From UHGV virus genome UHGV-0072281: a stretch of DNA of 64,000 nt. One strand, written 5' to 3'. Below the pieces are notes generated by a model. The model saw nothing but the letters and a program-made list of their open reading frames with translations, did not search any database and was not told where the DNA came from. Of this stretch, positions 820 to 27,938 are shown one piece after another; the first letter of the stretch is position 1; the number at the start of each line of letters is the position of its first letter. The translations under genes and the position numbers were made by a program. This stretch comes from a virus.

Positions 820-1359
820 ATGGATAGTCAAGCTACTAACCAAATGCAGCTAGTCGAGTTATATAACGCTGCCAACACTGGTTTGCCGCACAAATTGGTG
901 TCGTCTGAAGTAAAATTTGGTCTGCCCTCTGCAAACGACGACGGTGAAAAAAATACCAAAGTTACAATGACCGCTTTACCCGGCTCAGAAAATTTCCGTG
1001 GTCAGATTGAACTTAAGTACGACCGATTAAACCCCTCCATAATTTCTGATTCTCTGGGAGTGGTCAAACTCGAGGGGGAGATAGAAAAATGGCGGGAAGA
1101 TAACTATGTTCGCGCCTATCTGCAACATTATATTAACCAAGTAAAACCCAGAGACACAATAGCCACAGGCGATATTGTTTATAGTTACGAAGAAGTAAAA
1201 GAACAGGATAAACTTGTCGCACTACGAGTTACCTGCACTGTCGCTGAAAGAAACCATAAATATCTGCAAGGCGTAATGCTTGTCTTTGAAGTTAGTCCAG
1301 AAAAGATCGATCTTTCCACCACTAACGGAGAGTTGGACGGCTTTAAACCGACCGAGTAA
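820..1359 (+). CDS. hypothetical protein, paralog family A member 2
   Basis: AGGAG SD before ATG; clear paralog of 238..768 and 1394..1924 (N-terminal QM.LVELYNAANTGLPH, C-terminal TTNGELDGF). Confidence 0.7.
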   Translation: MDSQATNQMQLVELYNAANTGLPHKLVSSEVKFGLPSANDDGEKNTKVTMTALPGSENFRGQIELKYDRLNPSIISDSLGVVKLEGEIEKWREDNYVRAYLQHYINQVKPRDTIATGDIVYSYEEVKEQDKLVALRVTCTVAERNHKYLQGVMLVFEVSPEKIDLSTTNGELDGFKPTE

Positions 1360-1393: not shown

Positions 1394-1924
1394 ATGGCAG
1401 CTACTAACCAGATGATGTTGGTCGCGTTGTATAATGCTGCTAATACTGGGCTACCGCATCAGATTACTGATAAAGAAGTGTCCTTTGGTCAACCTGTTGC
1501 GCTGGAAGGCGAAGGTAAAAACACCAAAGTTACCATGACAGCATTGGCGGGTTCCGAAAACTTTAAAGGCTCAATCGAACTGAAATACGATCGACTGGAA
1601 CCGGGTGTTGTAGGGCGTATTGAACTAACTGACGATCTGTCTCGTTGGGTAGAAGAGAACGAACTGCGAGCCTGGTTACAGTATTATATCAACAAAGTAA
1701 AACCTAACGACACGATCGCGCCGGGAGATGTTGTTTATTCTACAGAAGACCAAAAAGACGAGCATGAAAACGTTACTCTGCGAACAGTAACGTGTACCGT
1801 TACCGAAAGAAACCTCCGTTATAAACCAGGTGTAATGGCAACTTTCGTAATTACACCGAAGGTTGTCGATAATCGTATTGACCTGGCCACCACCAACGGT
1901 GAATTGGACGGTTTTACTGCTTAA
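1394..1924 (+). CDS. hypothetical protein, paralog family A member 3
   Basis: 176 aa ORF; about half of residues identical to 820..1359 by eye. Confidence 0.7.
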   Translation: MAATNQMMLVALYNAANTGLPHQITDKEVSFGQPVALEGEGKNTKVTMTALAGSENFKGSIELKYDRLEPGVVGRIELTDDLSRWVEENELRAWLQYYINKVKPNDTIAPGDVVYSTEDQKDEHENVTLRTVTCTVTERNLRYKPGVMATFVITPKVVDNRIDLATTNGELDGFTA

Positions 1925-2670: not shown

Positions 2671-3218
2671 TCGTCTTCTCCTTTAATTAAACCCAGCTCG
2701 ATCAGAAGATCAAAATCGATTTTACGAAACTTACTATCAAAATTTGAGTCCCAGTCAATATGTAGTCCTTGACGTTCGTCTTCTGTAAACTCGGGATAAA
2801 CTAAACTATGAAAAGTTTCCCTTTCATCGTAAAAACCATCGATGGTGGACTCTGGGTTTCGTGTGACATAAATTGTTACACCGGGAAACGATAAGCCTAG
2901 GGCGGCTACAGATTCAACACTCGGCTCTTGCAAAGCGCGTCGCAAAAGAACGATTTTATGTTTAGGGAATTCCAGCACGCGCTGTTCAAAACCTGGGTTT
3001 CGTTTCTCGATTTCAGCCACAGAAAGATCGGTAAGTTCTGTACAATACATCGGAATAACAACGGTAACTCCGTGACGAATTAATAATCGCTTAACATCGT
3101 CATTGAAATCTTCGCCGTTAATCTGTACATAACAGCCAAACAGTTTCGTAGTTTCTAAAAACTTTTCCAGAAAACGGAATTTACGCTTCGTAATATTGTG
3201 GATCAGAATTGGCTTCAT
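2646..3218 (-). CDS. hypothetical protein
   Basis: 190 aa ORF; start overlaps the 3' end of the SPASM-type radical SAM gene (operon coupling). Confidence 0.6.
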   Translation of the reverse strand: MKPILIHNITKRKFRFLEKFLETTKLFGCYVQINGEDFNDDVKRLLIRHGVTVVIPMYCTELTDLSVAEIEKRNPGFEQRVLEFPKHKIVLLRRALQEPSVESVAALGLSFPGVTIYVTRNPESTIDGFYDERETFHSLVYPEFTEDERQGLHIDWDSNFDSKFRKIDFDLLIELGLIKGEDECLLLTKA

Positions 3219-4503
3219 CTTTGGCTTCTCTCAATTGTTTTTCTTTCTGGGCGCGTTCACGTACACAGCGAGGACAGTAACACATGCTATTATCGTGAAA
3301 ATCCTTCACGGATGTTGTGCCCATTTTCTGCTTCCAATATTCCGCAACCATCAATTTTGCAGTTGTCCAACCACACTGACGACGTTCAGCGTGATATGCT
3401 TTACGGTCTTCTAACGTCCCTTCCCCATTCTCGTAGGAAGCTGCTGCACAGCTACCACAAGCGTGTTTCATTGGACAACCTAAGCACGTCTCAGGATAGT
3501 TGGTGTATTGCGTCTGAATCTCTTCCAGCAGTTTCCCACCGTCTAAACTAACGAATTCGCGACCGACTAACTCAAATACCGCAGAGCGTGACGTTACAGT
3601 CGACATGAAACGGTTACAACCGAAAATCTTCCTGTCAAACCCTAAACAAGTCATGTGCGTTAATGTCCCGCAGAACGGGCGCAAGCGTTCCGGGTTTAAA
3701 CGTACAGTATCGTTGTAAAGTAGCTGATCACGCCAGTTCGGTTCCCAGATAGTGTCGAAATCTAACCCTTCCGGGATGATATGCGAAAGGGTATTACGTG
3801 GGTTGGTGTGTAAACCCTTTTCAACCCAATAATCGACTACATCCATCATTTGTAGCGCTATCGACGTAGCCATACTCCGTGGCATAATGTCTTCGAAGGT
3901 TACGTTACCAGAAATGGTTCCACCTCCCGCCAAATCGATTAGGGATTTCATACCCGCCGCATAATGTGGGAGTGTCTCCAAAGTAAATGTCGCTTTAACC
4001 CCAAGCTCCGCGATACCTACTTCTTTTAGATAATTGTAACCACGTACAGCGGCCTCGTAGGAACCTTCGCGACTCGTTGTAAAAATACGGTACTTATCGT
4101 GCGACTCAGGTAACCCATCAATAGATACCCCGATAGAAAGTCTGTCCTTCCAACGTTCAATAATTTCCCTGTTCAACGGCCTATCTAATAATGTCCCATT
4201 AGTAGAGATACTAAACATAAACGGACGTTTATGTTCTTCACACAACTGCTCGGCTGTTTCGAAAGCAGTCATTAGAAGCTTAGGCTGCATAAACGGTTCA
4301 CCGCCGATAATGTCAATGATGACTTCTACGTTTGGTAAATCTTTATCGCGTTCAAAGCAGGCATGAAGAAAGTCTACAATATCCGCTGCTTTGTTATTGC
4401 GGGGATATTTACGCTCGTAACAATACTCACAGTCCAAATTACACGACAAGTTTGTAACAATCTGGTAAGTCAACTGTTTCGGGTAATTATTTTCTTGGTT
4501 CAT
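3181..4503 (-). CDS. radical SAM enzyme with SPASM-type C-terminal domain (peptide-modifying maturase family)
   Basis: N-terminal CNLDCEYC (CX3CX2C), GGEPFM SAM-binding motif, C-terminal CLGCPMKHACGSC (CX2CX5CX3C) plus further Cys. Confidence 0.8.
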   Translation of the reverse strand: MNQENNYPKQLTYQIVTNLSCNLDCEYCYERKYPRNNKAADIVDFLHACFERDKDLPNVEVIIDIIGGEPFMQPKLLMTAFETAEQLCEEHKRPFMFSISTNGTLLDRPLNREIIERWKDRLSIGVSIDGLPESHDKYRIFTTSREGSYEAAVRGYNYLKEVGIAELGVKATFTLETLPHYAAGMKSLIDLAGGGTISGNVTFEDIMPRSMATSIALQMMDVVDYWVEKGLHTNPRNTLSHIIPEGLDFDTIWEPNWRDQLLYNDTVRLNPERLRPFCGTLTHMTCLGFDRKIFGCNRFMSTVTSRSAVFELVGREFVSLDGGKLLEEIQTQYTNYPETCLGCPMKHACGSCAAASYENGEGTLEDRKAYHAERRQCGWTTAKLMVAEYWKQKMGTTSVKDFHDNSMCYCPRCVRERAQKEKQLREAKDEANSDPQYYEA

Positions 4504-5410
4504 TTAATACTCCACTATTACGGTTGGCCATAACCACTCGTCGAATATACTCGTAGGCTTCTAACCCGATGGAACAAGCTAATTGGTTACATCCCGATTC
4601 TAATAATCTCGGGGCATTTTGCAACTGATATTCGGTTCCATCTGCTCTTAACCATAAACTATTGCTGCATACGTTACACCCACCATCAAAAACTTTGCTT
4701 ACGACATAGTCACACCTTTTCGAGTTGGAAACATTCAGTCTTTCTATATTTTCCTGAATTCTAAAATACCCGTAAATAAAGTTCATAACGTGATCGGGAG
4801 ATAACGGTTTTGGCATATTTGCGTCTAACAGCAACGTCATGGTACGATAACCGTAGTGATAGATCGCATTATGAAGCTCAATAATGTCTTCATGCCACCG
4901 TTTGTTACCCAACTGTTCTCGAGTTAAAACGGCCCATGTATGAACATTTTCAAGCTCATGCATTACTTCTAAAGCTTCGTAGCAATCATCGCTAATAAAA
5001 CGCTTAAAAGGGCGTTCAGACAACTCAAACCCGTCGATGCTAACATATACGTTATCAAATTGTTTTAACAACGGTAGATGCGTTTTACGCATCTTTAAGC
5101 CATTGGTGTATAACTGATGTTTGAGTTCTGGGCGAACTGCTTTTAACTCGTCAACAAACGCCTCAATTTTACGAGTGGCTAACAAAGGCTCACCACCCGT
5201 CCATTGAATCTCGGTAATTGTTGGGTTAGCTTCTAACGCCTCCATAATTCGGTCACGTTGAAACTCTCGAGAAGAATCTTCACGATTCATGTAATAGGCT
5301 CCGCCGCAGAAACTACAGTCCAGATTACATTTGGATGTAGTAATAACGGCTAATATAGTTGGATTATCAAATAGCTGATCTGATAATTTTGGTTCCGCAT
5401 TGGTCGCCAT
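4487..5410 (-). CDS. radical SAM enzyme, paralog 2
   Basis: ITTSKCNLDCSFC (CX3CX2C), TGGEPLL motif, C-terminal Cys pairs; 17-nt overlap with downstream SPASM gene; paralog of 7018..7929. Confidence 0.75.
   Translation of the reverse strand: MATNAEPKLSDQLFDNPTILAVITTSKCNLDCSFCGGAYYMNREDSSREFQRDRIMEALEANPTITEIQWTGGEPLLATRKIEAFVDELKAVRPELKHQLYTNGLKMRKTHLPLLKQFDNVYVSIDGFELSERPFKRFISDDCYEALEVMHELENVHTWAVLTREQLGNKRWHEDIIELHNAIYHYGYRTMTLLLDANMPKPLSPDHVMNFIYGYFRIQENIERLNVSNSKRCDYVVSKVFDGGCNVCSNSLWLRADGTEYQLQNAPRLLESGCNQLACSIGLEAYEYIRRVVMANRNSGVLNEPRK
4733..4816. repeat. 84-bp segment identical to 7252..7335 (between radical SAM paralogs)
   Basis: Direct comparison: attcagtctttctatattttcctgaattctaaaatacccgtaaataaagttcataacgtgatcgggagataacggttttggcat at both sites; offset 2519 bp. 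Confidence 0.9.
5064..5110. repeat. 47-bp segment identical to 7583..7629
   Basis: tttaacaacggtagatgcgttttacgcatctttaagccattggtgta at both sites; same 2519-bp offset. Confidence 0.9.
5288..5347. repeat. 60-bp segment identical to 7807..7866
   Basis: catgtaataggctccgccgcagaaactacagtccagattacatttggatgtagtaataac at both sites (encodes the CX3CX2C region); same offset. Confidence 0.9.
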
Positions 5411-5432
5411 TGCAGGTGACTCCGTTAATTAT

Positions 5433-6320
5433 TTAATTATAGTCGATAGCGAACAATGGATCTTCGTCGAAATTGACTCCAGGTTTTAAAACCTTAGTCG
5501 AATTATACGCCTCTAGCAACCGATTAAGATCGTTATAACGACTATTCATTCTTTTGAGGTCTTCTAAGGTCACAATACGATCAAGCATCGGCTTAACGGC
5601 CTCGGCTTCTTCATCAGTCAATTCAACCTTAGACAACAAAAAACTAACAAGTTTAGAAATATCAGCCTCGGTTACTGGACTTTGGCCAAATCGTATTTGA
5701 ACAAGATGTTGCATCCATGGTTTACGAATACGCTTCGTAATAACATGCTCATCAGTAATGGCTTTCCAAACAGAACGTTCACGAATCCATTCGAACTTAT
5801 AGCTATAGGCCATTAAATCAGCTAAATGTGCAATCCCGAGGTCCTGATAACCTTCAATGTTGGTGTATGGTTCACTGTCGGAATACTCTTCAACATCCTT
5901 ACCAACAAGAGTATAGTAATACGGAAAAGCCCCCATGTAATCTGGACTCCACCATCTCCGAACCATAGGCTTAGCGTCAAGCTCAGCAAACGGTGTAAAA
6001 AAAAGTTCTAAATCGCTACCAGCATTTAGAACTCCGTCACTGAAGAAGTATTTACCATCAACAATCATTCCATAAAGTTCATCATCTCCTGTAAAAACTA
6101 TCACACGTTCGACCGGCAGATCACGAATTGTAAAAGTATTTTCTACAGAGATATTATCACGGTTGACGATATCACGACCCCGTAATTTCGGCCATTCGCC
6201 AGGTAGCATGGTAATTAAACGAACGTCGTCACTTAAATGATAACGTACAGAATCTGGAGAAGAGATTTGCAAAGGATGGTTAAATGTAGTGTTATATGCT
6301 AAATGTAAATCGTTTTTCAT
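5433..6320 (-). CDS. hypothetical protein inside the radical SAM cluster
   Basis: 295 aa ORF with AGAGGT SD; no recognisable motif. Confidence 0.6.
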   Translation of the reverse strand: MKNDLHLAYNTTFNHPLQISSPDSVRYHLSDDVRLITMLPGEWPKLRGRDIVNRDNISVENTFTIRDLPVERVIVFTGDDELYGMIVDGKYFFSDGVLNAGSDLELFFTPFAELDAKPMVRRWWSPDYMGAFPYYYTLVGKDVEEYSDSEPYTNIEGYQDLGIAHLADLMAYSYKFEWIRERSVWKAITDEHVITKRIRKPWMQHLVQIRFGQSPVTEADISKLVSFLLSKVELTDEEAEAVKPMLDRIVTLEDLKRMNSRYNDLNRLLEAYNSTKVLKPGVNFDEDPLFAIDYN

Positions 6321-6343
6321 TGAATACCTCTGACACGTTTCTA

Positions 6344-6553
6344 CTACTTATTACCGCCAGCACCACGGCTACAACTACCGCTACAGGACCAGCTACACCC
6401 ACCGTTACAGTTATAGTGACTCAACGGTAAACCAGAAAGGTTATTAGTGGACGACACCGTACCCTGGTTTGCAATATAGTTGTTTGCTCCTGCTGTGGTA
6501 ATGTATCCTTCCGCCGTTACTAATCTGTCGCGTATGTTTTTAAGACTTATCAT
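6344..6553 (-). CDS. short Cys-rich peptide C (leader + short core)
   Basis: 69 aa; leader MISLKNIRDRL similar to peptides A and B; core HYNCNGGCSWSCSGSCS; ATG 3 nt after the stop of peptide B. Confidence 0.6.
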   Translation of the reverse strand: MISLKNIRDRLVTAEGYITTAGANNYIANQGTVSSTNNLSGLPLSHYNCNGGCSWSCSGSCSRGAGGNK

Positions 6554-6556
6554 TTC

Positions 6557-6955
6557 TCATCTTCCCGTACACGATTGCGAACAGCCACCATGACAGGTAC
6601 GACTACATGTACCTGTACATGTAGTCGTACATTGACCTATACATGTCCCCGTGCACCCACCAGAACATGAACTAGTACAACCTGAACATCCAGAACTACA
6701 ACCAGAAACACAGTTTGCTGAACATGAGGAACCACAACCTCCAGAAGCATTACCGGTACAACCACCAGAACAACTGGAGCACGTCCAGCTACAGCTACCA
6801 CCACAGTCGTAATGATTTTTAGGTTGCCCGCCAAATAGGTCGACATTATTCGTAGCCTTTCCACGAATATAGTTCTGTACTGCTCCAGTGTTTTTTAGCG
6901 CGGAAGAATCTATATTATCCAAGCGCGCTTTTAAAGAAGATAAACCAATCGCCAT
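6557..6955 (-). CDS. Cys-rich CXXX-repeat peptide B (putative radical SAM substrate)
   Basis: 132 aa; about 50-aa leader, then DCGGSCSWTCS and ~20 Cys at 4-residue periodicity; AGGTG SD. Confidence 0.7.
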   Translation of the reverse strand: MAIGLSSLKARLDNIDSSALKNTGAVQNYIRGKATNNVDLFGGQPKNHYDCGGSCSWTCSSCSGGCTGNASGGCGSSCSANCVSGCSSGCSGCTSSCSGGCTGTCIGQCTTTCTGTCSRTCHGGCSQSCTGR

Positions 6956-7017
6956 TTTAACACCTACTGGTTCAGTGCCAGCTAAGGCACATTATAATTC
7001 ATTCTCTGTAAAAAATA

Positions 7018-7929
7018 TCACAATTTTGCCGGAATCCTATTCTTAGCCCCTACTACTCGTCGTATATAATCGTAAGCATCTAAGCCAACCTTTCTGGCTA
7101 AGTCACTACAGCCATGTTGCGTTACGATTTCAACGTTTTTTACTTGATTCTGGACACCGTCAGACTCGATACGTAAACAACGACTACATGTATTACAGGG
7201 TTCATCAAATAACGCGTTTAGCGTAAACGCGCACTCGCTTCGATTGGACGAATTCAGTCTTTCTATATTTTCCTGAATTCTAAAATACCCGTAAATAAAG
7301 TTCATAACGTGATCGGGAGATAACGGTTTTGGCATGTTTTTGTCCAAAACTAGCGACATCTCGCAAAAACCGTAATGGTAGATGTGATTATGTAGCGCAA
7401 TTATATCCTCATACCAGCGTTTATCACCGATACGTTCTCGTGTCAAGACTGCCCAGGTACGAATATTTTTCAATTCGTAAATTGTCTCCAACACCTCGTA
7501 TTGTTTTTCTTCGATAATCCGCATAAATGGACGCTCTGATTCTTTGAATCCGTCCATGCTAAAAAAGATGCTATCGAAACCCTTTAACAACGGTAGATGC
7601 GTTTTACGCATCTTTAAGCCATTGGTGTACAGGTAATGATCACAGCGAGGATACTTCTCCCTTATCTCTTCTATAAGGGCATCAATTTTACGCGAAGCGA
7701 GTAATGGTTCACCTCCCGACCACTGAATATTTGTGATGGTCGGGTTATTTTCCAGCGCCTCGATAATACTTTTCTTTTGTACTTCTGCGGTTGTATCCTC
7801 TCTATGCATGTAATAGGCTCCGCCGCAGAAACTACAGTCCAGATTACATTTGGATGTAGTAATAACATTTAACGTTCTTGGTTCAGAATACAATTGATCG
7901 GATACTGTCGGTGTGGTTAACTCTATCAT
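7018..7929 (-). CDS. radical SAM enzyme, paralog 1
   Basis: ITTSKCNLDCSFCGGAYYM (CX3CX2C), SGGEPLL; shares three blocks of identical DNA with 4487..5410. Confidence 0.75.
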   Translation of the reverse strand: MIELTTPTVSDQLYSEPRTLNVITTSKCNLDCSFCGGAYYMHREDTTAEVQKKSIIEALENNPTITNIQWSGGEPLLASRKIDALIEEIREKYPRCDHYLYTNGLKMRKTHLPLLKGFDSIFFSMDGFKESERPFMRIIEEKQYEVLETIYELKNIRTWAVLTRERIGDKRWYEDIIALHNHIYHYGFCEMSLVLDKNMPKPLSPDHVMNFIYGYFRIQENIERLNSSNRSECAFTLNALFDEPCNTCSRCLRIESDGVQNQVKNVEIVTQHGCSDLARKVGLDAYDYIRRVVGAKNRIPAKL

Positions 7930-7953
7930 CAGTAATAGTACCTATCTGTTAAA

Positions 7954-8346
7954 TTAAGTCGGTCCTGAACAAGACGCACATGCGCCACTACATCCCGAGC
8001 TACAACGCCCGGAGCATCTACCACTGCATGTAGCGCTGCAACCAGTGCACCCACCAGAACACGTAGCGCTGCAACCAGTGCATTGATTACCGCAGGCGGA
8101 TGAACAGCTTCCAACACACACTGAGGTGCACGTACCAGAACAACTTGTACAACCATGCGTACAACCGTTCGAGCACGTCCAGCTACAGCTACCACCACAG
8201 TCTAATCGACCCGGTGTCCAGCCTGAAAAAGAATCTGCGGCATTGTGAGCTTTTGATGCAACCTGTGGATCGACGCGGGGTCCTGTCGCCATTTGATTCT
8301 CTACGTTGGTGATTCGATCGCGAACGTTTTTAACACTAATCGCCAT
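7954..8346 (-). CDS. Cys-rich CXXX-repeat peptide A (putative radical SAM substrate)
   Basis: 130 aa; leader MAISVKNVRDRI, junction DCGGSCSWTCS, then CxxxC-periodic core; AAGGA SD. Confidence 0.7.
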   Translation of the reverse strand: MAISVKNVRDRITNVENQMATGPRVDPQVASKAHNAADSFSGWTPGRLDCGGSCSWTCSNGCTHGCTSCSGTCTSVCVGSCSSACGNQCTGCSATCSGGCTGCSATCSGRCSGRCSSGCSGACASCSGPT

Positions 8347-8358
8347 TCCGTATCCTTA

Positions 8359-8403
8359 AAATAAAAAAAGAGGAGGACTACGCCCATAAGCATAGTTCCT
8401 CCT
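8359..8403 (-). terminator. hairpin + U-tract after the tail-fibre gene, just upstream of peptide A
   Basis: Minus strand: aggaggaac...gtcctcct (bulged stem, long loop) then cttttttatttt; SD and ATG of peptide A follow within ~15 nt. Confidence 0.45.
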
Positions 8404-8412
8404 GTAATAAAG

Positions 8413-9618
8413 TTATTTCGTACCCGCTTCCGCCTGTACGTCATCACGAGACGTCAAGTTAGCGTTAACGTGTACTGGGGCCTGAACCACACCACCGTAT
8501 TTCTTGTGGAGATAACCGGTATGTGGGTTATCTGCCGCAATGTGGTTTTGTAGGTTCTGGTTCGCCTGACTGATTGCGTTCGTGTTGTTAGCAACTTGCT
8601 TTTTGAGCGCATCCAGGTTCTGTTGTAACTGATCGATTTTCTGATCGGTTTCTTGACCCTGTTGCTCTAACGCGTCAACACGCTGAATAACCTGATTCAG
8701 TTTCGTGTTCAAATCGTTAATGCTCTTTTGCAGCTGTAACACTAACGAGTTCAGGTTCGCTAACGCTAAAGCCATTTTCTGGTAGTTTTGAGCAACCACG
8801 TTAAGTTGGTCGTTCCACGCTTCCAGAGAGTTGACAACAGCGTCAATACGCTTACCTAAAGCTTCATCTGCTTTCTTCAGTGCATTGATTTCCGTAATCG
8901 TTGCGTCGATAGCAGACTGGACGTCACGAATAAGCGCACGGATTTCAGTTTCTGTTAACCCGTTAACCTGATGAATATCAAGATGGTGAACGTTACCGGT
9001 TGCGTTAATGTGTGCATTTAAAGCGTCTAAGAAGTCATTTTTCAGGCTTTCTAAAATCGCTTTAATGTTCTCTAACTGTACCGCGTCACCAGAACTGATC
9101 GCATCTTTAATACCCGCCAATACGGTAATGATATATTCAAAACCGTAAATATCACCTACGTCTTTATACGTCGGTGCAGAAGGGAATGTATCTGGTACGT
9201 TACGCAGGTCTTTAAACGCAACCGTACGGTTATCGAGGTTTAATTCAGCAATCGCCTGTTCGATAGCCACGATGTTCGCAGACTGTGGGCCACCAACGAC
9301 CTGCGCAGATACCGTAATATCTGTTGGAATCGCTGTGTTAGTGACCACCACCGCCATAACAATCTCGCGGTTTTTAGTCAGCTTTTCATAAGTCGGGTGT
9401 GCAAAAATCAACTCATAATCGGTACCACGTTCGTAGGTTGCATCCGGTCGGTTAGCAACGCGTAAACGGAACGTGTCCGCAAAGAACGGGCCGTCAGGAA
9501 AAGCAAAAGCACGGTTTACTTTACCTGTACCTAACGTAATCTGACGCTCCACAGCGTTAGACGTTAGCGAGCCCGTTAAATCTAAAGGATATTGATAAAC
9601 AATGGAGGCCATGGCCAC
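8413..9618 (-). CDS. tail fibre protein (coiled-coil rich)
   Basis: 401 aa; N-terminal FPDGPFF...GTDYEL motif shared with the three giant genes upstream; long heptad-like Q/N/L-rich segment. Confidence 0.6.
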   Translation of the reverse strand: MAMASIVYQYPLDLTGSLTSNAVERQITLGTGKVNRAFAFPDGPFFADTFRLRVANRPDATYERGTDYELIFAHPTYEKLTKNREIVMAVVVTNTAIPTDITVSAQVVGGPQSANIVAIEQAIAELNLDNRTVAFKDLRNVPDTFPSAPTYKDVGDIYGFEYIITVLAGIKDAISSGDAVQLENIKAILESLKNDFLDALNAHINATGNVHHLDIHQVNGLTETEIRALIRDVQSAIDATITEINALKKADEALGKRIDAVVNSLEAWNDQLNVVAQNYQKMALALANLNSLVLQLQKSINDLNTKLNQVIQRVDALEQQGQETDQKIDQLQQNLDALKKQVANNTNAISQANQNLQNHIAADNPHTGYLHKKYGGVVQAPVHVNANLTSRDDVQAEAGTK

Positions 9619-9652
9619 TCTCCTTTATTCGAGACGTCCTTGTCCCGAGTCA

Positions 9653-12600
9653 TTAAGATGTAAACATAAGATTGAACTGGAGTTTGTCGATATCGCGAGT
9701 TTCTGCTGGATTCACGCCGTCGTACGCGGTCGCTACGTAAACCGTTAGCGTACCGTCAGCGTACGAGGATATTACCGGTGGGTTAGTTCCGGTCTGACCA
9801 TCTCGCACAATGAGTGCAGGCTCGCTGGGAAGATTATCAAACTGCCCTTTAACCGCTTTGTATACCAAACCGGACTGTGCAGATAACTCCGTGTCTGTGT
9901 ACACACAGAACGGTGTATCGATGTCAGCTTGTTTGATAGTGGTACCGGATTCGACATCAACCAACTGTACTGCTCCAAACTTCGTGCGATAACTTTCATA
10001 TTCGTTCTTCGGAATAACAAAAGTAACGTGAACACGAACTTCTTCAGCGGGCTTAAAGCCAGTATGTTCTTTTTCCAAATACTGGTTGGCTGATAGTGTC
10101 ACTTTTTGTTCGGCCATCGAACCACCTGCCTGATTTATTCCGTACCGGGCTTCAACAATACCGGTTGGTGCAGCAAGTCGCAATTTCAGAGTCCGATTCG
10201 CCGTTCCTGGATTACCTGGCACTTGAACGCGCAAACTCAATGCTAAGTAAGCATACGTTCCGGTAGTCGGTTTCGTATACGCACCTATCCATTTCATGTT
10301 CGCAGACGCTGCCTGCGTGTTCTCAGAAGCAATGGCTGTCGTAATGTTAGCAGCTACCGCTTTCTGCCAGAATTGGTCGGCGCAGTTCTCATACGCTACT
10401 CTGGCCACGCTCTTATAACCCGAATACGTTTCCTGAATTGGTAACTTAGGACGCGTCGTGATGCCAGACAATGAACCCCATTTTTGACCGTCAACATACC
10501 CTTCGCCCTTCGACGCAGCCGCCGTAGGTGCTTTAACGGGCTTGTTAACCAGGGTTAATAGAGGACCCGTCTTTCTGTCAAACGCTGCTGCTACATCGTG
10601 TTGGTCGATAATTGCTGCGTGGTCTTCCAGCTCTTTCACACGACCCAAGCGTTTTACTTTGTCGATACTGATATCAGTAATACGGCTGGAATCGGTGGTT
10701 ACTGTCCCGACGAACAGTCTCGTTGAAGTATCGGCTAACTGCTCCAAACCGATGCGGTATTGTGCGGTAGAATCCGACACCTCAGCGTGCACGTAGAACG
10801 TCTGGTTAGCGTGATTGGACGGGAACTCGCTGCTTAAATCCACAGACCACGTTGGGAGTGTGTAGCTGCTGCTACCGAAGTCTAATTTGACTTCTTCTGT
10901 CAAATACAGAATCCAACCTTCCGCTGTCTCCACACCAGCAATAATAACCGCCTGACCACCGGTTGAGAACGTCGTGTCGTTAACGAACTCTGCGGCTGTA
11001 TACGCGTTACCTGAACAGAAAACACGGTCAGCTTTAGAGAAAATCAACGCCATCTTGTCCCAATTACCGGCACCCATATAGCATCCAGATTCTGGGTTAT
11101 GCGCAGGAGCCATCTGACGTAACTGCGACTTACCAGGAACGCGAGACCAACCTGAACCTGGGTCGTAGGTATACTTCGCGGCGTAACCTAGTGCGTTTAA
11201 GTCCCCGATATTTCGGATAGTTAACGTATAAGGTAGCCAGATACCGAAGTTAGTTCCATCCGCAGAAGCGAAAATAGGCTGTCCGACGCGACGGGTCTTA
11301 TTACCAGCCTCCTCTCTTAACGACTGATAACTTAAACCGTAGTCTTTATCCAGGAACCAATCCACCAACTTAAAGTTAGCGGAGTTGAACCGTAAGTAAC
11401 CATTCTCTTTAGATGGACTCACCATGAAGTAATAGATGTCAAGAATTCGACGACCGTTACTTAAGGTTTTCATGCACGAAACTTGCAACAAGTCAAATTC
11501 GCACACGGTGTTGATACCCAACATCCAAAGAGCAAACAATGCATTACCGGTTTGATGGGCAGCACTAATACGTTCGTTCGCGTATCCGTTCGCTTGGCCA
11601 GAAGGTGCACCGTCAACGATCATCCGAATCATTTTCTGTCGATCGGCTTCTTCTAGCGTTAAGCGTTCGGAAGACAACGCGAAGTTACCGTAGATGTTAC
11701 GATACGGGAACGTTTCTGCTTTGGTCAAATACCAACCGTTTAACTGTCCGTGACGCTCCTCAGGAGTCATGCACGCAGCCATACAGCTAAGCTGCTCATA
11801 TAGCGTTGGATCGACTTCACGACGGTTGTTGTTCGGACCGTATCCGCTATAACCCGGAACATCGTAAGGTTTGTTCGGATCAACTTCTACTTCGATGGTG
11901 TAACGGTTACGTGGGTTAGACATCCACACTTTGTTCGAACCACCAATCCCAACAGGATGGGAAAGACCAATGGTATAAATAGAACCACGACCTTTATCCC
12001 AGGTAAACGTTCCTTCGCCTGAGGTATTGTTTGGGTTATCGTAACGCAGATAATCGAAAAATTCTTTGCCTTGTGTTCCTTTAATAGAAACGTTAGGCAT
12101 TTGGTCCGCGTCGTTAATCTGCCAGCAGGAAAGCATCATTCCTGTTCCATTAGGCTTAGCGTACGTTGCAAAACAACGATTGTTTGCTTGACCACCGCCC
12201 CACTTACGGCTGGTTTCTACAGTTGAACCATCCGCGAAAGAGAGTGTAGTAGCATCAGCCTTGATGGGAAAGCGTTCGCGGCCTTCTAACGTAACCTTGC
12301 CCGTCGACGTATCGATTGTAAAACTTGTTGCCCACTGACGAAAGTTAATTTGTGAGCTGTCAGCCGCTGCAAACCACACAGTAGGCATATGGTTCACACG
12401 AATCACGCCGTCGCGCACTGCACAAGCATGGTTACATTCTGGACCGTGAACAAAGTTGCAACCAATTGTCCATTTAGCCCGTGCTTCCGGCGTCAAATAC
12501 GTAAAGAACTGACCCGTTTGTGACTCTTCGGTTTTCTGGCCAATGCGTAGGCAGAGGTTATCTCCGAATTGTCCCATCTCCCCGTTTAGTGTTACGCGTT

Positions 12601-14836
12601 CAAACTCCAGCGTGGTGCTAGTAGACAAATCGTCCTTACGTAGACGCCAAGCTGCTACTGCGTAAGCAGAGTTATTTACCGTAGAGCGGAGAAGATAAAC
12701 GTAATCCTCAACCAACACAACATCATCGGCTTCTGGCCACGGATTCCAGGTTTGTTCCACAGTACCGCTGGGGTTGCCGTTACGGTACACGGGCATCGTA
12801 ACGCGACATACCACCGTGTGTTTAGTGTGATCCATCGAACCATTAAACAACACCAAATAACGGTTATTATCAGAACCCAGACAAATAATCGCTTCCTGAC
12901 CACCGATCAATATAGCTTTCAGGGTCACTCCAGGATATTTACTCATCCCGGCAGGGTGATATTTCACTGAGGTCTGCTGCGGATTTACAAACGCGTTTGA
13001 CGTGTTAATGTCAGCATAGCCGTAATAAATGGCTTCTGTACCCGGTACGCCGTTAGAACCGTTACGGAGCGAATAAACCTTACCCTGCTGATACCCAACA
13101 ACCCCTTTTTGATAAGACTGGTTTTTGGTATAACCCGAATAGTTACCTAGCGCTGGGATAGGTAAGAAGTTCTTGTTACCGAACTTCGCACCACCTACCG
13201 TCCACGCCGGTAAGATGGTATTCAGTTTATCAGAGACTTTCTTAATCTCTTTTGCGAACAGCCACCCTTGACGCGACGTGACAGCTTTATCGTTAGTAGT
13301 GTCAATCGCATCCCAGAGCTGCAAGATACCGTCAACCGATGCACTACCAATTGGAATGTTATCCAAGTCAGCAGTGGTGTGTGTATGCGTCTTCAAACTC
13401 TTGTTTTTCAACACGTTCGTTAACGCTTTCGTCACCGGCTTAGCACTTGGCGTGGTGTTATCCATCTTATCGGTACCGAAATCGGTTTTCGTTAAGGTTA
13501 ACACCATACTGTCGCCTACCTTAACAAACCCTTTACCGTTAACGGTATAGTCATCGTCAACGTACAGGTCCAAGCGGTCTTTTAATTCGGTTACGGCTTT
13601 CTGGGAGATAGCAGTACCTAACGCCGCAGACGTGGAGATATTCGTAATCGAGAACAACCCATAAACTGATTCGGTCGCTGTGGGAATATTCGCGTTTAAC
13701 GTAACCGGGTTAGTCTGTTTTGCGGTACCGTACGGTTTTACAGTGTCTGACGCTTTGAAATACGCGTTTGCTTCGAGCAACGTTACTGACGTCAGGTACA
13801 TGTTCACCATTTCTGGCGTAACCAGATACACGGAGTTATAAACCGGCGCTAATACATCCTGTTCTGACCCCGAGTGAACCCAAAGCGTATTCAGACCCGC
13901 ACTGAATTCAACCGCTAAACCTGATTCGTTGTTGTCCTGGTCTGCTTTAATCACCAACGGTTGTGGCGAGGTAATTAACCACTTATCACCGCGAATACTG
14001 ATGATGTGGCCACCTGACGTTTTAAACGTTAATTCAATACCGTTAGTAGTGCCCCATCGACCGTAAACAGTACCGAGGGCTTCACCCATTAACTGGTCAA
14101 CGTCTGATTGCTCAATACCCGCTGAACCCATCAGCGTAGCCAACTCGTCAATCGTCAACCCAAACGCTTTTGTAGCGTCAACAGCGCGGCCTAATACCGG
14201 GAGAGCAGCAATGTCGTCAGTGGTATAATGATGAGCGTTAGGATTCCGGTGGTGTTGGTATAACTCTTCGTCGAAAACCTTTTTACCGTTCTCGTAAATC
14301 AGGTTAGTAACTTCACTAAACGCAGCATCTAACTCTGTAGAACGCTTAATGATTTTCTTACGAATGTCTTCTAACGCCTTAACAACCTCATCTCTCAGAA
14401 TAGCTTCTTCTAAGTTAGCAGGCGGGTCGATTGGTTGAATAACCGGCGCATACGCCATTAGTTCAGACCAGTCCACGTTACGTGGGTCTTTCAGGTCAGT
14501 ACGAACTAAGAACTTCCCGATTTCAGATTGCGGTACACGATATTGACGTGCTACCCCTAAAATCTCATATTCGATTTCTGTTGCAGTAAGCAACATAAAC
14601 CCGCCGTAAATCTGATCTTGTTCAGCTTCTGCGAGTTCTTTAAAGTAATAGCCTAAATAGTAGTCCAACCCCTCAATCAGAGTACGACGTCCGTTAGGCG
14701 CGGTATCGTCGGCTACTGTGAGTTTTAATCCGATACGATAAAAAGGTCCTTCAGGTGGAATGACCACGTTAAATCGGTTAGGGTACGTTGCTGTGCTTAG
14801 CGTACCGTTAAACTGCGCCGCGTCTTCTCTCGGCAT
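9653..14836 (-). CDS. large tail fibre / tailspike-like structural protein
   Basis: 1727 aa uninterrupted ORF; N-terminal PEGPFY...GLDYYL motif; Gly/Ser/Thr/Asn-rich. Confidence 0.6.
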   Translation of the reverse strand: MPREDAAQFNGTLSTATYPNRFNVVIPPEGPFYRIGLKLTVADDTAPNGRRTLIEGLDYYLGYYFKELAEAEQDQIYGGFMLLTATEIEYEILGVARQYRVPQSEIGKFLVRTDLKDPRNVDWSELMAYAPVIQPIDPPANLEEAILRDEVVKALEDIRKKIIKRSTELDAAFSEVTNLIYENGKKVFDEELYQHHRNPNAHHYTTDDIAALPVLGRAVDATKAFGLTIDELATLMGSAGIEQSDVDQLMGEALGTVYGRWGTTNGIELTFKTSGGHIISIRGDKWLITSPQPLVIKADQDNNESGLAVEFSAGLNTLWVHSGSEQDVLAPVYNSVYLVTPEMVNMYLTSVTLLEANAYFKASDTVKPYGTAKQTNPVTLNANIPTATESVYGLFSITNISTSAALGTAISQKAVTELKDRLDLYVDDDYTVNGKGFVKVGDSMVLTLTKTDFGTDKMDNTTPSAKPVTKALTNVLKNKSLKTHTHTTADLDNIPIGSASVDGILQLWDAIDTTNDKAVTSRQGWLFAKEIKKVSDKLNTILPAWTVGGAKFGNKNFLPIPALGNYSGYTKNQSYQKGVVGYQQGKVYSLRNGSNGVPGTEAIYYGYADINTSNAFVNPQQTSVKYHPAGMSKYPGVTLKAILIGGQEAIICLGSDNNRYLVLFNGSMDHTKHTVVCRVTMPVYRNGNPSGTVEQTWNPWPEADDVVLVEDYVYLLRSTVNNSAYAVAAWRLRKDDLSTSTTLEFERVTLNGEMGQFGDNLCLRIGQKTEESQTGQFFTYLTPEARAKWTIGCNFVHGPECNHACAVRDGVIRVNHMPTVWFAAADSSQINFRQWATSFTIDTSTGKVTLEGRERFPIKADATTLSFADGSTVETSRKWGGGQANNRCFATYAKPNGTGMMLSCWQINDADQMPNVSIKGTQGKEFFDYLRYDNPNNTSGEGTFTWDKGRGSIYTIGLSHPVGIGGSNKVWMSNPRNRYTIEVEVDPNKPYDVPGYSGYGPNNNRREVDPTLYEQLSCMAACMTPEERHGQLNGWYLTKAETFPYRNIYGNFALSSERLTLEEADRQKMIRMIVDGAPSGQANGYANERISAAHQTGNALFALWMLGINTVCEFDLLQVSCMKTLSNGRRILDIYYFMVSPSKENGYLRFNSANFKLVDWFLDKDYGLSYQSLREEAGNKTRRVGQPIFASADGTNFGIWLPYTLTIRNIGDLNALGYAAKYTYDPGSGWSRVPGKSQLRQMAPAHNPESGCYMGAGNWDKMALIFSKADRVFCSGNAYTAAEFVNDTTFSTGGQAVIIAGVETAEGWILYLTEEVKLDFGSSSYTLPTWSVDLSSEFPSNHANQTFYVHAEVSDSTAQYRIGLEQLADTSTRLFVGTVTTDSSRITDISIDKVKRLGRVKELEDHAAIIDQHDVAAAFDRKTGPLLTLVNKPVKAPTAAASKGEGYVDGQKWGSLSGITTRPKLPIQETYSGYKSVARVAYENCADQFWQKAVAANITTAIASENTQAASANMKWIGAYTKPTTGTYAYLALSLRVQVPGNPGTANRTLKLRLAAPTGIVEARYGINQAGGSMAEQKVTLSANQYLEKEHTGFKPAEEVRVHVTFVIPKNEYESYRTKFGAVQLVDVESGTTIKQADIDTPFCVYTDTELSAQSGLVYKAVKGQFDNLPSEPALIVRDGQTGTNPPVISSYADGTLTVYVATAYDGVNPAETRDIDKLQFNLMFTS

Positions 14837-26595: not shown

Positions 26596-27330
26596 ATGAG
26601 AGAATTATTAGACGATATCTTTACCAACACCAGTTTAGAACTTTCTTCTACGCTGGTTAACGAGCTAATAAAACAATACCAACCTGCTAAGTTAATCTCT
26701 GTCTGGATAGTTAAACCCGAAGAATATCCAGACAGTGACATTATCGACTGTATGATTGACGAATACGCTATAGGCAGTTACGCCAACCAGATCTACTTTA
26801 TTCTTAATACCGAAACCAGCATCATGTTAATCTATAAGTTGATCAGTGACGCCGAACTTGAAGTTGTGGCTGACCACATTCGTCTTCTTGCGAATGCGCC
26901 TACTGGTTACAAAGTTGCGCTTATTGGTGACGGTTGGCCTTTGCCACCGCTATTCACTTACTTCCCTCTGTTTAAACATGGGATAGGGTTACTCCGTCAT
27001 GCAGAAAATCTTCCCGATAACGTAGAGTTATCACTGCTTGGGCCCGGCATCGATCTTTATCCATTAAAAGACGAGGGCACGCTATATGGTTTGCGCATCT
27101 ATGTTTCTGTGTTAAAGGGATACCGCGTTATTGAATTGATTGCATCAGACTTAGCAAAACAGATCCCCGAAGCAGAAACGATTTCTAAAGCCACCCACCT
27201 GGTTGAAATTAACCCGGACGATCCGTTATTACGGTATCACAAAGAAATTGACCTTCGTAAAATCGCCACGATAAGAGGATGGGATTGTGCTGAGATTACG
27301 AATAATAACCTGTTACTAGTACGTAAGTAA
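26596..27330 (+). CDS. hypothetical protein, paralog family B member 1
   Basis: ORF 26494..27330; start moved to ATG 26596 after AGGAG SD; C-terminal GWDCAEI...LLLV resembles the GW...QLLF motif of the next three genes. Confidence 0.6.
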   Translation: MRELLDDIFTNTSLELSSTLVNELIKQYQPAKLISVWIVKPEEYPDSDIIDCMIDEYAIGSYANQIYFILNTETSIMLIYKLISDAELEVVADHIRLLANAPTGYKVALIGDGWPLPPLFTYFPLFKHGIGLLRHAENLPDNVELSLLGPGIDLYPLKDEGTLYGLRIYVSVLKGYRVIELIASDLAKQIPEAETISKATHLVEINPDDPLLRYHKEIDLRKIATIRGWDCAEITNNNLLLVRK

Positions 27331-27350
27331 AAAACCTAAAGGAGAATAAA

Positions 27351-27908
27351 ATGTCTACTATTGAACTGAAACAACAAGTTATTGGGTTTATTAAGCTGGG
27401 TACAGGTAAACACCGACTTGATTATCCTTGCGTTATACAGTCTAACATTATCCCGGTCGATACAATGATTACCGGTCTTCAGGTTGAAGAATTTGATGGA
27501 GATGCTGTGGTTTGGGAACGCCATTTCACACGACTTAATTATCGTAAAGTCGGAGATAGTTTTACCGAAATATTCCGTCATCTGTTTTCCGGTACCGGAT
27601 GGAAAGTAACGAGTGCGTTCTACGGTGGCAATGTTGTTACGCTTCTAGACAGAGGAGATGCACGTTATCTCGTGAACTTTACTTTCGCAAGACACTATGC
27701 GTATTTCCCTAACCCTCTTACGTGTACGTTAAGTAACCCAGGAATACTACTAACAGATAAAGAAGCAGACGTTCTACTCGCCGAACTGCGAAAAGACGGT
27801 TGCGACGTTGACGATTGGGAAACATTAATCGCGGTTGCCAAAGCACACGGTTGGTACAGCGTACGTAAAATCGGTCAGCAGTTATTATTCTTAGCTTACC
27901 CTGTTTAA
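27351..27908 (+). CDS. hypothetical protein, paralog family B member 2
   Basis: 185 aa; CTAAAGGAG SD; C-terminal GWYSVRKIGQQLLFLAYPV. Confidence 0.65.
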   Translation: MSTIELKQQVIGFIKLGTGKHRLDYPCVIQSNIIPVDTMITGLQVEEFDGDAVVWERHFTRLNYRKVGDSFTEIFRHLFSGTGWKVTSAFYGGNVVTLLDRGDARYLVNFTFARHYAYFPNPLTCTLSNPGILLTDKEADVLLAELRKDGCDVDDWETLIAVAKAHGWYSVRKIGQQLLFLAYPV

Positions 27909-27938
27909 GTAACAAAAAAACCTAAAGGAGAGTAAAAA

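Follow-up and report, generated by a model that had tools for sequence, protein, structure and literature searches.

Islands of identical DNA in two diverged radical SAM genes of an SPN3US-like phage probably reflect recurrent gene conversion

Introduction

How do two genes that have otherwise drifted far apart come to share stretches of DNA without a single difference? The question is raised by two genes for radical S-adenosylmethionine (SAM) enzymes, here called rSAM-A (4487..5410, minus strand, 307 amino acids) and rSAM-B (7018..7929, minus strand, 303 amino acids), which lie in a 64,000-nucleotide stretch of the virus genome UHGV-0072281 (the whole stretch is hereafter the window). The phage is of the SPN3US-like jumbo type, described as lytic. 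An initial annotation, made from the sequence alone, had reported identical segments of 84, 47 and 60 bp in the two genes, at a constant offset of 2519 bp and between clearly diverged flanks. It offered two explanations, gene conversion or recombination and strong constraint on these DNA stretches, and warned that short-read assemblies could collapse or chimerise the locus. Comparison with related phages indicates that the blocks very probably arose by ectopic (interlocus) gene conversion, repeated and in short tracts, between two paralogues of ancient divergence.

Results and discussion

Three perfect blocks lie within otherwise saturated genes

The plus strands of rSAM-A and rSAM-B were compared ungapped at an offset of 2519 nt, and runs of at least 15 nt were counted. 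Exactly three perfect runs were obtained, of 84, 47 and 60 nt, as initially annotated, and all are read on the minus strand. Block 1 (60 nt, gene nt 64-123) occupies 5288-5347 in the A copy, is 100% identical to 7807-7866 in the B copy and encodes VITTSKCNLDCSFCGGAYYM, which includes the CX3CX2C motif. Block 2 (47 nt, gene nt 301-347) lies at 5064-5110 in A, is 100% identical to 7583-7629 in B and encodes YTNGLKMRKTHLPLLK; block 3 (84 nt, gene nt 595-678) lies at 4733-4816 in A, equals 7252-7335 in B and encodes MPKPLSPDHVMNFIYGYFRIQENIERLN. These translations agree with the cluster motif and the two peptide regions to which the segments had been assigned. The offset is constant because no insertion or deletion separates the genes until the last few codons. 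The blocks cover about 21% of the gene, and the other 79% lies outside them.

Divergence between the two genes is far from uniform. Overall they share 66% of their nucleotides and 186 of 308 aligned amino acids, and outside the blocks nucleotide identity is 56-58%, which bears out the claim of diverged flanks. At codons for identical amino acids, the same codon is used in 51 of 123 cases outside the blocks versus 63 of 63 inside. When codon labels were shuffled among the degenerate codons of identical amino acids, the longest run was found to be improbable (P = 3e-5), and the sum of the three longest runs was reached in 0 of 100,000 shuffles. Related sequences are designated here by L numbers. 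In a Sawyer-type test on a six-sequence alignment with 511 variable sites, 0 of 20,000 permutations reached the observed value for the A-B pair, both in the window and in the relative L007, and the control with an orthologous pair (window A and the A gene of L004) was not significant (P = 0.26). The number of synonymous substitutions per synonymous site (dS, Nei-Gojobori) between A and B is 0 within the blocks; elsewhere it is saturated and not computable.

Paralogues of the DUF7941 family served as an internal negative control. Three of them stand in tandem on the plus strand at 202-1924 (188, 179 and 176 amino acids), and the second and third (820..1359 and 1394..1924) are 58% identical in amino acids with conserved runs of 10-11 residues; their longest exact run is at most 12 nt, and the pair is without conversion blocks. 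Across the 64-kb window, exact repeats reach 28 nt or more in only four cases, the three radical SAM blocks and a block that the neighbouring peptide genes have in common.

At the protein level, the three radical SAM blocks fall on the family's three longest invariant stretches. An AlphaFold model of the small radical SAM protein (predicted local distance difference test score, pLDDT, 76) forms a partial TIM barrel, and its best fold match in the PDB is SuiB (template-modelling score 0.54), a maturase of ribosomally synthesized and post-translationally modified peptides (RiPPs). On this model, block 1 corresponds to strand beta1 and the cluster loop, block 2 to a strand end and the helix at 109-115, and block 3 to a loop and the long helix at 205-229.

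Block alleles differ among phages and agree within each genome

The initial annotation had named comparison with related phages as a check, and this comparison carries most of the argument. rSAM-B was found only in one clade, made up of the window, its relative L003 (about 98% identity) and L006-L009. The last four are contigs of more than 220 kb, obtained from separate samples with different assemblers, in which B is 90% and A 74% identical to the window at the nucleotide level. In every two-copy relative, A and B share identity blocks at these three places, and the borders shift slightly. In gene coordinates, blocks 1, 2 and 3 span nt 64-123, 301-347 and 595-678 in the window, 64-123, 301-347 and 595-677 in L003, and 76-126, 310-347 and 584-678 in L006/L007. 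L008 and L009 match L006/L007 in blocks 1 and 2, and the contig end cuts their A gene within block 3.

The alleles of these blocks vary between phages, yet within any one phage both copies agree. There are three alleles of block 2: relative to the window, L003 differs at sites 303, 309, 312 and 336 and L007 at 312, 318 and 328. Lineages further differ at site 99 in block 1 and site 660 in block 3. In total, 14 of 15 between-lineage differences are mirrored in both copies (4/5 for window versus L003, 5/5 for window versus L007 and 5/5 for L003 versus L007).

Genomes that lack rSAM-B provide the counterpart. Between window A and the A gene of L004, which has no B, there are 28 differences in the 189 block nucleotides and dS is 0.92. 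Within the blocks, A and B of one genome are 100% identical, whereas A is 73-92% identical to its L004 and SPN3US orthologues; outside the blocks the ranking is reversed, with 56-58% for A-B and 74% for window A against L004 A. A block dS of about 0.9 in these orthologues means that the block DNA drifts freely when it has no partner. This excludes constraint at the sequence level and leaves conversion; together with the three alleles of block 2, it contradicts the part of the initial annotation that invoked strong constraint.

Tree topology shifts accordingly between the two classes of site. In a neighbour-joining tree built without the block columns, B falls outside a clade of window A, L004 A, L007 A, SPN3US and L021. 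When only the block columns are used, A and B from genomes with both genes group together. The signatures by which gene conversion is recognised are found here: paralogues that are closer than orthologues within the blocks, over-long identical fragments, mirrored substitutions and a change of topology. The proposal of gene conversion or recombination in the initial annotation is thus strongly supported.

Copy B is the probable donor

rSAM-B is absent from SPN3US (L001), L004, L014-L016 and L019-L028. In the genomes without it, the order is three peptide genes, p295, one small radical SAM gene and the larger radical SAM gene rSAM440, with no gene between the peptide genes pep130 and pep132 (neighbouring genes are described below). 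The single small radical SAM protein of these genomes is always nearer to A than to B in amino acids (79% versus 62% for L004, 63% versus 55% for SPN3US). rSAM-A is the orthologue of the SPN3US 'radical SAM superfamily protein 2', with synteny kept in all relatives, and rSAM-B matches that protein of SPN3US and its relatives at 55% identity (tblastn). Since B stands outside the A/SPN3US clade once the blocks are removed, the trees indicate that rSAM-B is an ancient paralogue or a horizontal acquisition and not a recent duplicate.

A small set of residues bears on the direction of transfer. At amino acids 22-25, the A genes of the window and L003 read VITT, as does B, and other A-type genes read VVAT or VVTT. 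L007 A has H42 and K197, both as in B, at positions where other A-type genes have N or D and A, respectively. At amino acids 216-220, window A and L007 A share FRIQE with B, and the A-type genes of B-less genomes have YQVQD, WKILD or LKIQE. A carries the B-type residue exactly where the tract reaches further in that lineage. In addition, window A and L007 A are 99% identical in block 3 and 69% identical over the remainder, and the two B genes are 89% identical over their remainder. Both the B-type residues in the extended A tracts and the similarity of block 3 suggest that B is the usual donor, and the B copy of block 3 is the probable source of that tract.

The A side of the locus is also the more variable between phages. 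The p295-rSAM-A cassette (4487-6320) is 60-80% identical in nucleotides between the window and L007, and the flanking gene p401 reaches 93-100%. In amino acids, p401, B and rSAM440 of the window and L007 are 96-98% identical, and p295 and A are 69-75% identical. This distribution suggests that the p295-rSAM-A cassette has been replaced between phages.

A fourth block joins two peptide genes

The one further exact repeat links pep130 (7954..8346, minus strand) and pep132 (6557..6955, minus strand), two Cys-rich peptide genes on either side of rSAM-B. A 32-nt block at 6777-6808 in pep132 encodes DCGGSCSWTCS on the minus strand and is identical to 8171-8202 in pep130. L003 shows one change in this block relative to the window and L007, in which the block measures 31 nt, shows three other changes; in each case the changes are present in both copies. 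In L004 and SPN3US, both without rSAM-B, exact runs between pep130 and pep132 do not exceed 14 nt, even though the amino-acid motif is the same in both peptides of L004 and nearly so in SPN3US. The peptide block behaves like the radical SAM blocks, which points to the same process. We note that conversion of the peptide genes is seen in the B-carrying clade and not in B-less L004 or SPN3US.

Hybrid genes and the reliability of the assemblies

Three short contigs carry mosaics of L007-type A and B genes, with parts 92-99.8% identical to the parental types. In L010 (488-1411), a gene between pep130 and rSAM440 consists of B nt 1-583 followed by A from nt 679 to the end. In L012 (156-1070), a gene between p295 and pep132 consists of A nt 1-583 followed by B from nt 679 to the end. 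In L011 (449-1363), a B gene between pep130 and pep132 is A-type at nt 75-583. All junctions fall within the identity blocks. If real, L010 and L012 are the reciprocal products expected of unequal crossing-over in block 3, and L011 represents a long conversion tract or double crossover. Each hybrid was seen once, in a contig of 1.4-2.7 kb from another sample, and real recombinants and assembly chimeras (a mis-resolved graph at low coverage) are equally expected to look like this.

The warning in the initial annotation about collapse and chimeras therefore holds for these short contigs, whose hybrids are joined inside the blocks and are perhaps chimeric, and does not extend to the long ones. 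At least six assemblies agree on the arrangement of the long contigs, and a single read is longer than any block. Four contigs encode the B protein without change and among the same neighbouring genes, the IMG/VR and ENA versions do not differ, and L006-L009 add four further contigs with both copies. In practice, A/B hybrids in short metagenomic contigs of this locus are untrustworthy without read support.

A model of self-perpetuating islands

We propose that homologous recombination during phage replication would start only where conservation of the protein has kept the DNA most alike, namely at beta1 and the CX3CX2C loop, at the YTNG...LPLLK segment and at the helix after beta6; the recombination machinery is itself a presumed component of this proposal. 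Once made identical, a stretch would be an efficient substrate for further conversion, so that the islands would perpetuate themselves. What fixes the tract ends may be the sudden drop in homology, selection that disfavours homogenisation of segments in which A and B are distinct, or a combination of the two; it is presumably these divergent segments that confer substrate specificity. B would mostly be the donor and A the recipient. The p295-rSAM-A cassette may be swapped among phages and then patched from the resident B.

Several points weigh against this account. Conversion is deduced from the comparison of metagenomic assemblies, with no event directly seen. The two-copy genomes form a single clade of three lineages, which may recombine and so would not be fully independent. 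The B-to-A direction depends on few diagnostic residues and assumes that the A-type genes of B-less genomes show the ancestral state. Finally, blocks 2 and 3 each keep one 3' border across all lineages, which random tract ends would not predict; fixed 3' borders need a homology cliff or selection.

Alternative explanations

The alternative closest to gene conversion holds that the blocks were selected as homology anchors, through which the divergent specificity segments of both maturase genes and of incoming alleles are shuffled as modules. They would then act as an evolvability device for a hypervariable locus linked to tail fibres, much like the conserved motifs in T-even tail-fibre genes. 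The junctions of the hybrid genes, all inside blocks and with L010/L012 reciprocal and L011 a double crossover, would fit this idea, as would the recurrence of block positions across all lineages and a p295-rSAM-A cassette far more divergent than its flanks between otherwise near-identical phages. However, neutral conversion limited to the most conserved segments predicts all these observations, each hybrid sits in one short contig that may be a chimera, and a functional or favoured status of the hybrids is supposition. We regard the anchor explanation as compatible with the data, not needed to explain the blocks, and improbable. Scarcely less improbable is a broader version, in which the anchors are kept because they reshuffle both the maturase segments and the Cys-rich peptide substrates, within a genome and between co-infecting phages, and in which L010-L012 are real. 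On this broader version, the locus would shuffle cassettes and thereby diversify a RiPP-like modification pathway that is encoded by the phage and linked to its tail fibres. Direct constraint on DNA or RNA (an RNA structure, or a regulatory or binding site needed in both genes) is largely refuted and very unlikely. In its favour, block 2 (5064-5110, 7583-7629) can form a stable hairpin, with a perfect 8-bp inverted repeat, AGATGCGT-AAA-ACGCATCT, within a second 6-bp stem (RNA minimum free energy -14.8 kcal/mol, z = -4.4), and a weaker version, free of compensatory changes, is present in every orthologue. Yet the block dS of B-less orthologues is about 0.9, block 2 has three alleles, of which that of L007 disrupts two base pairs of the hairpin with no compensating change, and comparable inverted repeats number 25 in the window. 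For blocks 1 and 3 and the peptide block, folding is no stronger than that of shuffled sequences, and the blocks have no Rfam match and no promoter- or terminator-like enrichment. The hairpin was rejected as the explanation of the blocks, given its weakening in the L007 alleles and the similar repeats in the window; it could be incidental to the conserved coding sequence for NGLKMRK(T/S)HLPL, or could favour recombination.

An assembly or consensus artefact, in which short reads from the two genes were collapsed, deserves attention because all data are short-read metagenome assemblies and hybrid contigs occur at the locus. The blocks (47-95 nt) are, however, shorter than typical reads and than the final assembly k (k119, k141), different assemblers and samples recover the same structure, and lineage-specific co-varying alleles cannot come from collapse, which makes this a quite remote prospect. 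It would take still more to rescue the idea that B is a recent duplicate of A, with the blocks as an undiverged remnant and the rest changed fast under positive selection. A and B are indeed neighbouring family members, and the blocks match the most conserved segments of the protein; against this, synonymous sites outside the blocks are saturated, B lies outside the whole A/SPN3US clade when blocks are removed, and block alleles changed in concert after the lineages split. Recent duplication was rejected on the dS values and the tree and is highly unlikely. Least likely of all is that the blocks are the template and variable repeats (TR/VR) of a diversity-generating retroelement. The locus adjoins tail-fibre genes, the usual targets of such elements, but the repeats are 100% identical without adenine mutation and the mismatches outside them hit the four bases about equally. 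The mismatch spectrum led to rejection, since the pair does not have the properties of a TR/VR pair; no reverse transcriptase was present among the gene calls of the loci examined, a check that did not extend to the remainder of the window. Gene conversion is thus the explanation that we retain.

Relation to known cases of gene conversion

Interlocus gene conversion with concerted evolution is a well-known process, familiar from paralogues of bacteria and of eukaryotes and here unusually cleanly documented, and the locus does not represent a new kind of element. The tufA/tufB genes of Salmonella are an example among bacterial paralogues. As in bacterial paralogue conversion generally, paralogues of one genome are closer than orthologues, substitutions co-vary, and tracts are short, non-reciprocal and dependent on local homology. 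Unlike there, homogenisation stops short of the whole gene and affects just three islands, each about 50-95 nt long, in otherwise saturated genes; these genes belong to a lytic jumbo phage, and one partner is an ancient or horizontally acquired paralogue.

Recombination between conserved motifs in the distal tail-fibre and adhesin genes of T-even phages has reportedly been described by Tetart and colleagues. The likeness is that short conserved segments in divergent phage genes serve as crossover points and that the neighbourhood, concerned with host range, is a mosaic. T-even exchanges, in contrast, take place mainly between phages and swap adhesin domains; here they involve two paralogous enzyme genes of one genome, and the sole cases of module swapping come from three short contigs that are unverified.

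For prokaryotes as a whole, conversion between paralogues has been surveyed (PMC6053082). A parallel for the patchwork of converted and unconverted sequence is GOT1 in Tigriopus, where 'islands of divergence' between paralogues reportedly persist despite gene conversion (PMC3728101), a pattern read as conversion balanced by selection for distinct functions. The proportions are reversed in the phage, with about 21% converted and 79% escaping.

Particular to this case are the confinement to three islands, the probable donor bias of B, the parallel in the peptide genes and the setting of uncharacterised radical SAM and Cys-rich peptide genes. Conversion tracts can evidently persist between otherwise saturated paralogues and carry amino-acid changes from one enzyme copy to the other, and trees and dS values for rSAM-A and rSAM-B mislead unless the blocks are masked.

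A radical SAM and Cys-rich peptide cluster next to tail-fibre genes

The genes discussed above form part of a RiPP-like cluster (3181-8346) that is conserved in SPN3US-like jumbo phages and lies directly downstream of tail-fibre and virion structural genes. The whole region is encoded on the minus strand. In the order of transcription, the gene for a tail-fibre-like protein of 1727 amino acids (9653..14836) comes first, followed by that for the virion structural protein p401 (8413..9618, 401 amino acids). pep130 comes between p401 and rSAM-B, the extra paralogue inserted between pep130 and pep132; after pep132 come a third Cys-rich peptide gene, pep69 (6344..6553), and p295 (5433..6320, 295 amino acids, phrog_8030, function unknown). 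rSAM-A occupies the conserved slot between p295 and the radical SAM gene rSAM440 (3181..4503, 440 amino acids), which is last.

Both small proteins belong to the radical SAM superfamily, as they exceed the PF04055 cut-off of 29.5 bits (52.3 bits for rSAM-A, which also matches PF13353 with 35 bits, and 51.3 bits for rSAM-B) and contain CX3CX2C (CNLDCSFC, amino acids 28-35). They pass only the generic Pfam radical SAM models: there was no Pfam SPASM match, and the NCBIfam maturase models all scored far below their cut-offs (best 53 versus 225 bits). C245, C248 and C274 are invariant, so a twitch-like auxiliary cluster is possible. For rSAM440, the top NCBIfam match is TIGR04115, the 'CXXX-repeat target' peptide maturase (120 bits, E = 1.3e-34), a score below the curated cut-off of 350 bits, so that rSAM440 is not assigned to this family.

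The three peptides (phrog_6085) share a common leader and a [DN]C[GN]G[SG]CSW[TS]CS motif and are rich in Cys, Ser, Gly and Thr; in pep130 and pep132 the motif is followed by CxxxC repeats. With rSAM440 beside three genes for peptides with leader and CxxxC repeats, the locus resembles CXXX-repeat peptide/radical SAM systems (TIGR04115 with TIGR04114/TIGR04117) and the radical SAM/SPASM maturases of ranthipeptide/SCIFF type. It differs from CXXX-repeat systems in that scores are far under the cut-offs, in being phage-encoded beside tail fibres, and in having one or two extra small radical SAM genes and p295; it is known here from sequence alone. As a hypervariable radical SAM and Cys-rich peptide cluster beside SPN3US-like tail fibres, the locus merits biochemical study and is of somewhat more interest than the blocks themselves. 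We found no paper on the SPN3US-type radical SAM/peptide cluster, nor on gene conversion in phage paralogues.

A megablast search of the locus against 50,697 phage records gave zero nucleotide-level matches. Among these records, relatives were detectable only at the protein level, in the SPN3US group and with at most 55% identity; the hosts of SPN3US and its relatives are Salmonella, Escherichia, Erwinia, Cronobacter and Proteus. A scan of genome contigs returned just distant, unrelated radical SAM genes, and a scan of JGI metagenomes returned no further lineage with both copies.

Other features of the region

The stretch from 8400 to 14000, with p401 and the tail-fibre-like gene, shows fine-grained recombinational mosaicism when the closest relatives are compared: in 150-nt windows along the tail-fibre gene, identity jumps from about 60% to 100% in L003, L006 and L007. 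L006-L009 have an extra insertion of ~440 nt between pep69 and p295, with an ORF (open reading frame) of 96 amino acids (L007:7753-8043; L006 about 7590-8042), which is absent from the window. On inspection of its sequence in L006/L007, this ORF does not look like a homing endonuclease; no library scan was made. Within pep130, a 33-nt tandem repeat at 8009-8074 (76% identity) encodes the duplicated unit CSATCSGGCTG/CSATCSGRCSG, which suggests that the Cys-repeat region of pep130 grows by slippage or unequal exchange.

In the RefSeq entry of SPN3US (NC_027402, region 5040-6060), gp100 (locus 5516-5851) is annotated in an alternative frame rich in Val, Ala and Arg that overlaps the conserved Cys-rich peptide ORF (5443-5847), and the pep130-like and pep69-like ORFs are both left unannotated. 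The same mistake is present at pep130 in the ENA gene calls for the window's contig, where an ORF of 89 amino acids is called in the alternative frame. Elsewhere in the window, an AT-rich motif, ...AAAAACCTAAAGGAGA(A/G)TAAAA, occurs twice, at 27320-27351 and 27906-27937, 586 nt apart, and is probably a common ribosome-binding or promoter region upstream of two genes.

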